This document shows, piece after piece, positions 5,713-17,153 of a stretch of DNA of 64,000 nt; positions within the stretch are counted from its first letter, which is position 1; the number at the start of each line of letters is the position of its first letter. Made by a program: the position numbers and the translations under genes. Source of the DNA: a virus (lineage: Duplodnaviria; Caudoviricetes). Below the pieces are notes generated by a model, which did not search any database, had not been told where the DNA came from, and was given only the letters and a program-made list of their open reading frames with translations. The stretch is taken from IMG/VR virus record IMGVR_UViG_3300035661_000004, one strand, 5' to 3'.

Positions 5713-5798
5713 GGTGCGCCCGGCCGGACTCGAACCGGCACGCCACTGCTGGCGTCAGGACCTAAACCTGGTGTGTCTACCAATTTCACCACGGGCGC
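5712..5798 (-). tRNA. tRNA-Leu (UAG)
   Basis: GCGCCCG/CGGGCGC acceptor, loop TT-TAG-GT, long variable arm, TTCGAGT T-loop, A73, encoded CCA. Confidence 0.95.
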
Positions 5799-11814: not shown

Positions 11815-12213
11815 TCAGTCGTGATGATCTTCGAGCGGGTCGTCGTAGAGCCGTACATGTAAGCGTGCGTCAGGCCGTTTGTACAGCACCTCCTCGGACA
11901 CAGCGCAACCTGTAGCCTCCTTCAGGTGGTTGAGCGTGTCGGGAGCGTCACGCAGCGTGATAAGCAAGCTTTGACCAGACGCGCGAAGCACCGTGCCGTA
12001 CTCTGCATTGATTAGCCTTGCGGCGGTTTCGGGCGAGTACTTTGCGTCAAGCCCAACACGGACAATGTACCGCTTTTCCTTGCCAAGTGCTTCTGCAGCT
12101 GGCTCTTGTTCTTCAGCCTTCTTGCCAAAGATTCGGTCCCACCCGCTACGGTAGGAGTCGGTAGTTGACTTGGACTTGAGGGCATCGCCGGTAATGTCGT
12201 TGTGTGCTATCAT
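11815..12213 (-). CDS. Hypothetical protein embedded in the tRNA array
   Basis: 132 aa, N-terminus NDITGD..KSK..YRSGWDRIFG; the A of its ATG is the terminal A of the tRNA-Ser(GGA) CCA. Confidence 0.7.
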   Translation of the reverse strand: MIAHNDITGDALKSKSTTDSYRSGWDRIFGKKAEEQEPAAEALGKEKRYIVRVGLDAKYSPETAARLINAEYGTVLRASGQSLLITLRDAPDTLNHLKEATGCAVSEEVLYKRPDARLHVRLYDDPLEDHHD

Positions 12214-12307
12214 GGCGGATAGTTGAGTACTCGAAACCCAATCCCTCGTTACCGAAGAATCCCACTGCTTTCCAAGCAGGTCCGGTCACCTAACCGGTTA
12301 ACTATCC
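12213..12307 (-). tRNA. tRNA-Ser (GGA)
   Basis: GGATAGT/ACTATCC acceptor, loop TT-GGA-AA, long variable arm, G73, CCA. Confidence 0.92.
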
Positions 12308-12310
12308 ATG

Positions 12311-12396
12311 TGTCCCGTACCGGACTCGAACCGGTACGCCTCTTCCGAGGCGGCAGAGTTTAAGCCTGCTGCGTCTACCAATTTCGCCAACGGGGC
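12311..12396 (-). tRNA. tRNA-Leu (UAA)
   Basis: Loop CT-TAA-AC, Leu-type D-loop TTGGTAGAC, long variable arm, A73; one acceptor mismatch; CCA not encoded. Confidence 0.9.
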
Positions 12397-12487
12397 GGTG
12401 GAAGACGGAGGACTTGAACCCCAAGCCACATCTCTGTGACTCCCACTGCTTTCGAAGCAGGTCCGGACCCTGTCCGGTTCATCTTCC
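12397..12487 (-). tRNA. tRNA-Ser (CGA)
   Basis: GGAAGAT/GTCTTCC acceptor, loop TT-CGA-AA, long variable arm; discriminator A rather than G; abuts the next tRNA. Confidence 0.9.
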
Positions 12488-12490
12488 GTA

Positions 12491-12635
12491 AGGTGACAGT
12501 AGGACTCGAACCTACGATGCATAGTCTGTCATGCTAGCTTATGCCATCGGTTCCTGCCATGGGCATGCGAGGGTGATAAGGCCTCTCCGTCTTGACTTGA
12601 CCGCGACGCTGTCTACCAATTTTCAGCATGTCACC
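12491..12635 (-). ncRNA. Oversized (145-nt) tRNA-like RNA with the anticodon arm replaced by a structured insert
   Basis: Perfect 7-bp GGTGACA/TGTCACC acceptor, Leu-like D-arm CTG-AAAATTGGTAGA-CAG, T-arm GTAGG-TTCGAGT-CCTAC, about 90 nt between D- and T-arms. Confidence 0.75.
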
Positions 12636-12636
12636 T

Positions 12637-12719
12637 TGGTGCCCTCGGCGGGACTCGAACCCGCAAAAATCTAGCATCTCAAGCTAGTAGCTGTACCAAT
12701 TTGCATTTATCACGAGGGC
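12637..12719 (-). tRNA. tRNA-Leu (GAG), short variable loop and irregular enlarged D-arm
   Basis: GCCCTCG/CGAGGGC acceptor, CTAGC-TTGAGAT-GCTAG anticodon arm, ATTTTT variable region, A73, CCA. Confidence 0.85.
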
Positions 12720-12767
12720 GTGATGTGTTTGCATTATATTACCTTTTCGGCCAAGGTGATATAAAGC

Positions 12768-12860
12768 GGCGGATGACAGAGGACTCGAACCCCAGCCCGG
12801 GTACTAGCCGAACCGTACCGCTTTCAAGGCGGCCCCGGACGCCCGCCCGGTTTATCATCC
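12768..12860 (-). tRNA. tRNA-Ser (UGA)
   Basis: GGATGAT/GTCATCC acceptor, GCCGC-CTTGAAA-GCGGT anticodon arm, long variable arm, G73. Confidence 0.92.
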
Positions 12861-13415
12861 GATGATGAGGTGCTGCAGCTTAGCTACAGCTTCGTTCCAA
12901 GAGGCCCCAATGACGCTGTCAGGAACCCTTACGCTAATGCACCACCGAGGCTCAGCCTCCACGTCAATGGAGTGCGGAACGTCCGTGCGCACGAGCGTAA
13001 GCTCTTGCTTGACCTCATGGCTGTCAATAAGCGTGAGCTCCGTCTTAGGCCATGAGAGGTAGTCTGTCTCGACCATGGTCAGGCTTGCGGCACCTGCTTT
13101 GCCCTCATGCCCTGTGTACCACAGCATCTTGCTCCCCTTGCCGCCTAGGACCCAGTTAAAAGCAAATGCTTTCGGCCTAGTCGGCGTGCTCATGTCGATG
13201 TGCGCGATGGGGCTTCGAGCCCAAGGCTGCTTGTAGAACAAGATAGCCTGGCAGACCGGCAGGCCGATCAAGGTCATCCAGCGTAACCAATCATCGGTGA
13301 AGATGTCGGTCAGCGTAGGGTCATAGATAGCCCAGGGCTTGGGGTCAGCGGGGAGCGTCCAACCAGGTCTTAGGGCGCCCGCTGTCGGGATAGTCAGTTC
13401 ATGCCAGCACTTCAT
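12855..13415 (-). CDS. Putative 2OG-Fe(II)/cupin-like protein, late
   Basis: 186 aa from MKCWHE; AHID...NWV...PHS...RWCISVR; TAAATA at 13421-13426; stop codon lies inside the 5' end of tRNA-Ser(UGA). Confidence 0.6.
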   Translation of the reverse strand: MKCWHELTIPTAGALRPGWTLPADPKPWAIYDPTLTDIFTDDWLRWMTLIGLPVCQAILFYKQPWARSPIAHIDMSTPTRPKAFAFNWVLGGKGSKMLWYTGHEGKAGAASLTMVETDYLSWPKTELTLIDSHEVKQELTLVRTDVPHSIDVEAEPRWCISVRVPDSVIGASWNEAVAKLQHLIIG

Positions 13416-14255: not shown

Positions 14256-14340
14256 TGGTGCGCCCGGTCGGACTCGAACCGACACGCCTTGCGGCAACAG
14301 ATTTTGAGTCTGCCGCGTCTACCCATTCCGCCACGGGCGC
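14256..14340 (-). tRNA. tRNA-Leu (CAA)
   Basis: GCGCCCG/CGGGCGC acceptor, loop CT-CAA-AA, long variable arm, A73, CCA. Confidence 0.95.
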
Positions 14341-14344
14341 GTGA

Positions 14345-14854
14345 CTAAGTACGTTTCTTAAAACCCCACGTTGGAGTTTGTGTGTGACAGTTGGGACAGA
14401 TCATGCGTAAGTTTTCACGCCGATTGTCCTTGTTATCACCATTAGCGTGATCAAGCTGAAACACTAAGGGCTTGCCATTCCAAGTTTGTCCAAGGCCGCA
14501 TTCTTTACAAATGCCGCCTTGCTCTAACAACACGCGCTCATGGAAGCAGCTCTTAGGAACTTCGTGCCATGGTGCATCTGTTAAGTGGTGCTGCCGTTTG
14601 TCTTTTGCAATACGTGCGGCCATTAAACCGCCCTTGATTCTATCTTCGCGCATCGGCCCTGCAGTAGGTCTTCCTGCTTGATAGCCAGCTCTCAATGTAG
14701 CACTGCTTCTAGCTCGATTTGCTAAGCATTGATTAGCGCTCTTGCAGCAAATGTACTTTCCACTTGCACTAATGAATAGGGCAGTTTGCCCACAGTCGTA
14801 AGCACACATGTGTGCCGTTGAAATTGGTGTAGCTGGTTTAGGTCCGCGTTTCAT
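14345..14854 (-). CDS. Free-standing HNH homing endonuclease
   Basis: C-terminal CKEC...LDHANGDNKDNRRENLRMICPNCH; AT-rich; TAAATA at 14861-14866. Confidence 0.88.
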   Translation of the reverse strand: MKRGPKPATPISTAHMCAYDCGQTALFISASGKYICCKSANQCLANRARSSATLRAGYQAGRPTAGPMREDRIKGGLMAARIAKDKRQHHLTDAPWHEVPKSCFHERVLLEQGGICKECGLGQTWNGKPLVFQLDHANGDNKDNRRENLRMICPNCHTQTPTWGFKKRT

Positions 14855-16523: not shown

Positions 16524-17153
16524 TCAGCTCGTGATGAACTTCGGAGCCAAGTCACGGTACACGCGGCTGCGGTCCTTGTTGGCGATCCGTCCCAACAAGA
16601 AGGCCATCTGATCAGCCTGGATGTTGCGGTTGCGCATGATCATGGCTTCGGCCTTGCACGGGATGTACGGCAGGTAGAGCGGATCCATGGTCCGAGTGCC
16701 TTGCGGGCTGTACTGTCCATGCGGCAGCGGCTTGCCTGGCAGCAAGTCACCCTTCAGGTTGTTGCAGGCCTTGCAGGCCGTGACCACGTTCATCCACACG
16801 TCCGGGCCGCCCTTCGACACCGGCATGATGTGGTCACGAGTCAGGTCATGGCTCGTGAACAAGCCAGAGCAGTAGGCGCACATGTAGCGGTCACGCTGGA
16901 ACAGTGAGGAGTTCGTCAGCGCAGACGGCTTAACCCGCTTGACCGTTGACTCGCCCTTGATGACGATGATCGAAGCCGTCATCAGCTCGGACTGGGACTT
17001 GGTCACGGAGTTGTCACCACCACGGTAGGTGATGAGGTCATCGCCCAGGTGATCCAGGACTTGGCCCTTGGCTTCGCACATGATGGCCTCGTCACGGGTG
17101 ATCCACTCGTGAGGGGTCCAAGACTTGTCGAGTACCAGAACTTGATGCTGCAT
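16524..17153 (-). CDS. HNH endonuclease (McrA-like 5-methylcytosine HNH family pattern)
   Basis: LFQRDRYMCAYC...TRDHIMPVSKGG..W.NVVTACKACNNLKG; GAGGAG RBS. Confidence 0.88.
   Translation of the reverse strand: MQHQVLVLDKSWTPHEWITRDEAIMCEAKGQVLDHLGDDLITYRGGDNSVTKSQSELMTASIIVIKGESTVKRVKPSALTNSSLFQRDRYMCAYCSGLFTSHDLTRDHIMPVSKGGPDVWMNVVTACKACNNLKGDLLPGKPLPHGQYSPQGTRTMDPLYLPYIPCKAEAMIMRNRNIQADQMAFLLGRIANKDRSRVYRDLAPKFITS

Follow-up and report, generated by a model that had tools for sequence, protein, structure and literature searches.

The minus strand at positions 12635-12491 carries a 145-nt element that, as read from the sequence, is tRNA-shaped at its ends and elbow. It is an orphan within a kind of phage gene that recurs and is little understood. 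The window analysed here, a 64,000-nt stretch of DNA, is part of an uncultured large phage with small genes, most of them on the minus strand. Our leading interpretation, held tentatively and with somewhat less than even confidence, is that the element is a selected, non-decoding tRNA-shaped RNA gene that is processed like a tRNA and possibly acts as a decoy; it is probably descended from a class II tRNA-Leu of the CAA type. The parts that are read by processing enzymes (acceptor stem, T arm and elbow-forming D arm) are retained, while the anticodon side is degenerate and enlarged by approximately 50-70 nt.

In the element numbering used here, index 1 is window position 12635 and counting follows the minus strand. 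The 5' strand of the acceptor stem, GGUGACA (12635-12629), forms seven of seven Watson-Crick pairs with 12498-12492. After U8 and G9 comes the D arm (12626-12609), CUG(A)-AAAUUGGUAG-(A)CAG, which has a 3-bp stem (C10-G25, U11-A24 and G12-C23) and a Leu-type loop that matches Leu tRNAs at 12373-12384 and 5774-5786; the neighbouring tRNA-Leu(UAA) has a loop of the same type. The loop is one base longer than in the Leu neighbours, and the stem pairs C10-G25 and U11-A24 depart from the G10-C25 and C11-G24 that are usual in Leu frames. The T arm, GUAGG-UUCGAGU-CCUAC (12515-12499), is fully paired (5/5) and matches the consensus. It is followed by the 3' strand of the acceptor stem, UGUCACC, and a discriminator U at 12491 (together 12498-12491); CCA is not encoded. 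All 15 frame pairs are thus intact (acceptor 7/7, D stem 3/3, T stem 5/5), the D and T loops conform to consensus, and the frame is far above chance. An earlier note on this DNA, made from the letters alone, had described a perfect acceptor stem, a Leu-type D arm and a canonical T arm around about 90 nt, and this description holds: from D arm to T arm, the centre measures 93 nt.

The first part of the centre is a degenerate anticodon-like hairpin (12608-12588), in which CGUC and GACG close 13 nt; the hairpin contains GUCAA GUCAA, a 5-nt tandem duplication of the anticodon region resembling a slippage mutation. A possible 7-nt loop, GUCAAGU, with the anticodon CAA, lies at 12601-12595 on a stem that is 3/5 Watson-Crick in the drawing produced by ARAGORN. 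The note's statement that there is no 7-nt anticodon loop is not quite correct, since the weak hairpin can offer GUCAAGU on a stem with two mismatches. Next is a GAGG/CCUC hairpin with a 9-nt loop (12587-12567), the equivalent of a variable arm if the element is read as Leu(CAA), and then a block of 49 extra nt (12564-12516). This block contains most of an imperfect hairpin, AUGCC..GGCAU (whose 5' strand starts at 12566, outside the block), all of a GCAUG/UAUGC hairpin (12534-12519) and a linker, AUC.

All three hairpins reported in the note are present in the constrained fold, but they are no better than those of shuffled sequence. The minimum free energy of the 93-nt centre is -21.8 kcal/mol, compared with a shuffle mean of -23.5 (z +0.47), so that the centre is no more stable than chance; for the fold of the whole element, z is -0.60 relative to shuffles. 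The term "structured insert" is accordingly unsupported, and the same is true of the argument that intact stems speak against decay, as the stems of the centre are at chance level and the GUCAA GUCAA duplication is slippage-like. The centre contains five 6-bp palindromes, a count reached by 1.4% of shuffles and also by 1.6% of all windows of the same size, which makes it unremarkable. A search for an antisense target of the element returned only matches of 10-13 nt, which is the chance level, and no promoter or terminator was found inside the element. A 31-codon ATG-to-TAG frame (MLKIGRQRRG..., 12629-12534, minus strand) crosses the element; its first seven codons are the D-arm consensus, and the frame is probably meaningless.

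With respect to the criteria for a canonical tRNA, the element has the 7-bp acceptor stem, a D arm with G18 and G19 and a T arm with a UUCGA loop, and it falls short on the 5-bp anticodon stem with 7-nt loop (the best stem has 3/5 pairs) and on model score. ARAGORN made no tRNA call for the full-length element and none when introns of 0-130 nt were allowed at the default threshold; at 90% of that threshold it offered only an Arg(CCU) whose stem was poor and which lacked a variable arm. The Rfam tRNA model (RF00005) gave a partial match of 19.8 bits to the 3' third of the element (12491-12548), below its cut-off of 29, and no other Rfam family matched the element or its centre at E-values up to 10. 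Three insert-bearing tRNA genes from IMG/VR (L088, L105 and L084) served as positive controls: all passed ARAGORN with the -i option and scored 33-47 bits with the Rfam tRNA model.

We also removed every block of at least 20 nt between the D and T arms (approximately 2,800 variants) and submitted the products to ARAGORN. Exactly one variant was called: loss of index 72-120 (12564-12516, 49 nt) gave a marginal tRNA-Leu(CAA) with the anticodon stem U-A, C-G, G.A, C.A, G-C, the loop GUCAAGU and the GAGG/CCUC hairpin as its variable arm. In a control, the same scan accepted hundreds of variants for other oversized elements, which makes it too permissive for classifying the IMG/VR elements described below. 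Because of this permissiveness the rescue is weak evidence, and it suggests, at the level of sequence, that the element descends from a class II tRNA-Leu(CAA) gene.

Several other identities were rejected. The element is not a tmRNA, as it has U3-A70 instead of G3-U70, no tmRNA was called at its position and the phage has its own tmRNA at 2412-2759. A group I intron was rejected because the extra sequence measures 49-73 nt, compared with a core of at least 200 nt, and because there was no match to Rfam Intron_gpI at E-values up to 10; the note's judgement that the insert is too short for such an intron is in agreement with both results. The features of an intron-bearing phage tRNA were not seen, as no intact anticodon stem flanks the insert and no call was made with introns allowed at the default threshold. 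A tRNA-Tyr origin was considered because 23 of the 24 nt at the 3' end are shared with the tRNA-Tyr of a Pseudomonas phage; in the full alignment, the similarity is confined to the T arm. Finally, a repeat or mobile element was rejected since no second copy was found in the window or at any locus.

The note had listed an assembly chimera among the outcomes that would undo its reading. Positions 12100-13000 were recovered in one piece and with 0 differences in the per-run contigs of four public DNA runs from sediment and microbial-mat metagenomes, some of which may be the source sample of the phage DNA; no RNA run was listed alongside them. Over 3.9 kb, a JGI contig of 128 kb likewise shows 100% identity. 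Based on the agreement of these contigs, the insert is real and a chimera is excluded. No variants were seen at the element among the matching contigs, an observation that is silent on selection.

An array made up exclusively of class II tRNAs (Ser, Leu and Tyr) lies on the minus strand from 11.7 to 15.3 kb. The phage encodes all Leu, Ser and Tyr isoacceptors, including a canonical tRNA-Leu(CAA) at 14256-14340. Immediately upstream of the element is a tRNA-Leu(GAG) with a short variable loop (12719-12637, minus strand), the CCA end of which lies 1 nt before the element. Downstream, 3 nt (UAC) past the element, is a Ser(CGA) tRNA with the shape of a tRNA-Sec (12487-12400, minus strand; 37.1 bits with RF01852, below the cut-off). 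These spacers of 1 nt and 3 nt bear out the note's statement that the element is packed 1-3 nt from flanking tRNAs. Several tRNAs of the array have non-standard bodies, with either short variable loops or Sec-like shapes. ORFs of the endonuclease type are found in the array region at 14345-14854 and 16524-17153.

Upstream of the first Tyr tRNA is a leader ORF, MKNTSLSYLSSSSLYSDGGFCMIG (15485-15411, minus strand), which includes twelve consecutive Ser, Leu or Tyr codons; the leader peptide ahead of the class II tRNA operon is MKNTSLSYLSSSSLYS. The Ser/Leu/Tyr run is kept in a related phage (contig L001, see below). An operon restricted to class II tRNAs, together with a leader rich in Ser, Leu and Tyr, is consistent with class II tRNAs becoming limiting.

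Other tRNA genes of the array are themselves unusual. Ser(UGA) (12860-12771), Ser(CGA) and Ser(GGA) (12309-12214), all on the minus strand, have 8-bp acceptor stems and long D stems, and resemble the published "allo-tRNA" shapes. They score best with the Rfam tRNA-Sec model, yet stay below its cut-off (43.3 and 37.1 bits). Between two Tyr tRNAs is an odd tRNA-like gene (15215-15136, minus strand) with a 5-bp D stem, no GG in the D loop, and a 6-bp anticodon-type stem closing the 6-nt loop AGUUUG. This gene is kept in the relative (L002, 207-290) with changes that preserve stem pairing, and ARAGORN identifies the relative's copy as Asn(GUU).

Elsewhere in the window, genes for HNH endonucleases and a DHFR are encoded, as is a trio of PrkA kinase, DUF444 and SpoVR proteins (30047-22916, minus strand), in which a cpYpsA SLOG-domain gene separates PrkA from DUF444. 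This trio is the bacterial yeaG-yeaH-ycgB stress module; DUF444 and SpoVR are found in L001 as well. The phage tmRNA (2759-2412, minus strand) is of the two-piece (permuted) type and has the tag ANDSVYAMAA, and the tag of the tmRNA in L001 is ANDSAFLMAA. An ORF at 56932-55646 (minus strand) encodes a homolog of adenylosuccinate synthetase (Pfam, 145 bits); such phage homologs can be PurZ, the enzyme for 2-aminoadenine DNA. The ORF at 32964-32515 (minus strand) encodes a YqeY-like protein (PF09424). GatB has a related domain as its tRNA-binding tail, and this YqeY-like protein may be a phage-encoded tRNA-binding factor.

Homologs of the element were sought in several ways. DNA patterns, both exact and gapped, that represented the element's centre, D arm or 3' end matched nothing in viral, metagenome or genome contig collections, and the 21-mers from the D arm and from the 3' end were absent from the viral and genome collections scanned. 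A blastn search of 50,697 phage records returned matches to the T arm only, and patterns anchored on the conserved Leu(GAG) neighbour located no further element. Using three flanking proteins from both sides of the array (208, 227 and 132 aa), only the phage of the window and one related phage were recovered among 5.8 billion proteins. The relative is represented by two ENA contigs, L001 and L002, and its neighbouring proteins are 49-58% identical to those of the window. Both phages share the tRNA order Ser(UGA), Leu(GAG), X, Ser(CGA), Leu(UAA), Ser(GGA), but in the relative X is a 194-aa ORF, P0006 (L001, 10781-11365), at the exact site of the element, which is absent. P0006 belongs to phrog_23051 and has a cysteine-rich, zinc-finger-like N terminus; its start follows the CCA of Leu(GAG) directly, and its stop codon runs into the first bases of Ser(CGA). 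It is probably a homing-type endonuclease of the free-standing sort, comparable to segB among the T4 tRNA genes. A tblastn search with P0006 gave no match at the element. The absence of homologs with compensatory changes, which the note had named as an outcome against its reading, is thus what was found: nothing similar was present in the collections searched, and the sole relative does without the element.

The tRNA-Leu(GAG) is 100% identical in the relative (L001, 10698-10780), with a variable region of only 6 nt; this identity reflects either very strong constraint or recent exchange. The odd Ser tRNAs, including Ser(CGA), differ from their copies in L001 by compensatory changes, which indicates that those tRNAs are under structural selection. 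For the element itself selection cannot be demonstrated, as it has no homolog and the sister phage has an ORF at the site. No tRNA in the window or in L001 and L002 has its acceptor stem or D stem, and it is therefore not a recent copy of a tRNA.

If our leading interpretation of a non-decoding, tRNA-shaped RNA is right, established tRNA biology allows its production to be sketched. An acceptor/T-arm unit suffices for RNase P cleavage, 3' trimming and CCA addition. The element would be transcribed together with the Ser/Leu/Tyr tRNA array, RNase P would cut at its G1 (12635), and the 3-nt trailer would be lost after RNase P has released the downstream Ser tRNA. CCA would then be supplied by the CCA-adding enzyme, to give a stable RNA of approximately 148 nt that would not pair with codons. 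Co-transcription and probable processing, as proposed in the note, are plausible from the packing and from the intact acceptor/T-arm unit. Given U73 and the extra base in its D loop relative to the Leu neighbours, LeuRS would be unlikely to charge it. As to function, our guess is a mimic, made at the same time as the replacement class II tRNAs of the phage, that would tie up a protein able to recognize class II tRNAs by their top half and long variable arm, such as a MenT/AbiEii-type toxin with which a host inactivates tRNAs. MenT3 needs the tRNA top half and the long variable loop of class II tRNAs (PMC11162799), so a target for such a decoy could exist, although its involvement here would be a guess by analogy. 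For a factor of this type, an RNA that combined the top half with an exaggerated variable region would make a plausible decoy.

One argument for selection is the contrast between the intact frame and the anticodon-like stem, which has mismatches at two of its five positions. By a rough estimate, 12 intact pairs would be expected approximately 0.2% of the time if all stems had decayed at the rate of the anticodon stem. Because the element is unlike the tRNAs of this phage and of its relative, its pairing has outlasted a history of its own. The gene-like packing and the recurrence of the design in phages point in the same direction. Set against this, no homolog was found in the collections searched, and the sister phage has an ORF at the site; the centre folds with z +0.47 as opposed to -4.6 for T4 RNA C, the covariance model of which does not match; the GUCAA duplication and the single 49-nt block look like mutation damage; and position 73 is U, whereas it is A in 50 of the 61 comparable elements listed from IMG/VR. 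The note's proposal of a tRNA mimic stands to the extent that non-decoding tRNA-shaped RNAs recur in phages (T4 RNA C and the IMG/VR elements); the decoy, sponge and scaffold roles that it suggests are guesses. Taken together, we regard the mimic interpretation as a plausible hypothesis.

A quite possible alternative, to which we give somewhat less credence, is that the element is a decaying and functionless pseudogene, namely a second tRNA-Leu(CAA) disabled by a 49-nt insertion by the variable arm, a 5-nt slippage duplication and a change of A73 to U; with its ends intact, it would still be transcribed and cut out. That one 49-nt deletion restores a Leu(CAA) callable by ARAGORN fits such a history, but the rescue is marginal, is one of approximately 2,800 deletions and comes from a scan that is permissive elsewhere. 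The tandem GUCAA GUCAA and the chance-level folding of the centre likewise speak for decay, as does the canonical Leu(CAA) that the phage already has. Against it, the 15 frame pairs and the consensus loops have all been retained although the anticodon stem is broken, and the element resembles no tRNA of the phage or its relative and so is not a fresh duplicate. The site is a variable one, occupied in the relative by an endonuclease-like ORF, and no homolog of the element was present in the collections searched; on the other hand, 145 nt of junk tightly packed between genes would be rare in a phage genome.

The remaining alternatives appear improbable. A tRNA precursor from which the insert is removed to give a working class II tRNA, comparable to the "enigmatic introns" of Lak phages, is conceivable insofar as insert-bearing phage tRNA genes exist (PMC6784885) and as L088, L105 and L084 of IMG/VR are clear Leu(UAA/CAA) genes that carry 44-62 nt inside an intact anticodon arm and pass the Rfam tRNA cut-off. 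The element behaves differently in the intron-tolerant ARAGORN runs and in its Rfam score, beside any insert, a complementary 3' strand for an anticodon stem is missing, the 49 window ORFs scanned showed neither an RNA ligase nor a splicing enzyme, and every Leu, Ser and Tyr isoacceptor is already encoded by the phage; we therefore consider a precursor improbable. A decoding tRNA with a giant variable region of 72 nt, reading UUG through the weak CAA loop and perhaps charged by an enzyme other than LeuRS, is if anything slightly more doubtful. U33, C34-A35-A36 and a purine at 37 do fall within a 7-nt loop that follows the D arm immediately, and class II variable arms point away from the ribosome; but the stem has two adjacent mismatches, there is no nucleotide 26, the loop has G32 and U38, and ARAGORN and Rfam rejected the full-length sequence. 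By the identity rules of E. coli, U73 fits no class II identity set known to us, and we know of no working tRNA with a variable region of 72 nt. The least probable of the explanations, and a very improbable one, is that there is no RNA gene at all, the DNA being either a remnant (the footprint or target of a homing endonuclease) or a 31-codon ORF (12629-12534) translated from the operon transcript. Although endonuclease-type ORFs are present in the array, and L001 has one at this very site, a perfect tRNA frame would be unexpected from a footprint, and the ORF of L001 had no tblastn match here. The 31-codon frame does run from ATG to TAG, but the nearest Shine-Dalgarno-like sequence, AAGG, is only 4 nt from its ATG and its opening codons are accounted for by the D-arm consensus.

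A bolder form of the preferred reading, in which a tRNA-shaped RNA is made without decoding, would place the element in a broad, undescribed class of Leu-framed phage RNAs lacking an anticodon arm; here it would be a decoy for a host factor that uses the top half and long variable arm to inactivate class II (Ser/Leu/Tyr) tRNAs, and it would be expressed from the stall-sensing operon that also supplies odd-shaped replacement class II tRNAs. We consider this unlikely as a whole. Were the RNA made and found to bind a tRNA-directed defence or processing protein, a class of unannotated phage genes would gain a testable function and, if true, a link to the contest between phage and host over tRNAs. 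If the element is only a pseudogene, the site is still marked as a hot spot, with an endonuclease gene there in the sister phage.

Elements of comparable design were sought in IMG/VR by scanning for a Leu-type D loop and a T loop 83-113 nt apart, which gave at least 115 loci. Among the loci listed, 68 enclose a Leu-framed element of 129-159 nt in which at least six of the seven acceptor positions are paired (mostly 7/7), a degree of pairing expected by chance in less than 1%. Removal of seven tandem-tRNA artefacts left 61 elements with 41 different acceptor sequences among the matches listed. Some of these, such as the three used as controls, are clear tRNA-Leu genes; others have a common frame, unrelated centres and no anticodon arm. 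In the two families that were aligned the centre is nearly invariant, and in the eight-member family three acceptor pairs have changed in a compensatory manner; family conservation of this kind was not found for the element, which is absent from L001 and L002. Within this set of loci (L012-L126), L017 has three elements in tandem (10-149, 397-513 and 589-708), L115 (7873-9639) has four insert-bearing tRNAs in a row, and one frame, with the acceptor stem AGUCAGG/CCUGACU, occurs with at least ten unrelated centres.

The element is similar to these Leu-framed elements in having a 7-bp acceptor stem, a D arm (with AAUUGGUAGA in the IMG/VR set) and a T arm (with GGUUCGANUCC) around a lineage-specific centre, which measures 78-107 nt in the set and 93 nt here; like the element, they are often located beside tRNAs and are often without a usable anticodon arm. 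It differs from them in having U73 and C10-G25, whereas A73 is found in 50 of the 61 listed and most have G10-C25, and its centre shares no similarity with theirs beyond 7-mers. Compared with tRNA-Leu(CAA), the element has the same type of D loop, a T arm, the loop letters U-CAA-G and a GAGG/CCUC stem at the place of the variable arm. Unlike a tRNA-Leu(CAA), it has two mismatches in the anticodon stem, U73 rather than A73, one more base in the D loop and 49 extra nt before the T stem, and at full length it is rejected by both ARAGORN and Rfam. The tRNA genes of Lak megaphages carry "enigmatic introns" whose mechanism is not known (Devoto et al. 2019, PMC6784885). These genes and L088, L105 and L084 are, like the element, phage tRNA genes or tRNA-like sequences that exceed 100 nt and have additional nucleotides separating the D arm from the T arm; in them an intact anticodon stem flanks the insert and the gene is recognized when introns are allowed, neither of which is true of the element.

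The closest parallel in design is found in phage T4. Stable, tRNA-shaped RNAs of the RNA C type have been known from phage tRNA clusters since the 1970s. RNA C of T4 (species 1 RNA, rnaC; NC_000866, 70908-71046) is 139 nt long, and in the T4 tRNA cluster, which also contains the homing endonuclease gene segB, RNA C and RNA D lie a few nt from tRNA-Arg. In Klebsiella phage KaAlpha, RNA C similarly has tRNA-Trp on one side and tRNA-Gly on the other, both tightly adjoining. The fold of RNA C (z -4.6) has an acceptor-type stem, then two hairpins, of which the first is long, and finally a consensus T arm, with compensatory changes at 19 pairs in five members from four genera. It is a stable RNA with a role that is not known (PMC3014915; PMC9697503). 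A covariance model built from the five family members (R1) gave no match to 12491-12635 at E-values up to 10. Both are approximately 140 nt long, share their strand with tRNAs that are only a few nt away, belong to a cluster that includes a homing endonuclease, and combine an acceptor-type terminal stem and a consensus T arm with a large centre unlike that of a tRNA. RNA C has no D arm and has two U-U mismatches in its acceptor stem, whereas the D arm of the element is complete and of the Leu type; the centre of RNA C is one long, very stable, covarying hairpin, in contrast to the weakly structured centre of the element. Based on these comparisons of sequence and predicted fold, the element resembles T4 RNA C in design while standing outside its family: it presents that design on a different frame, with a full Leu D arm, and in an unusual operon of class II tRNAs only.
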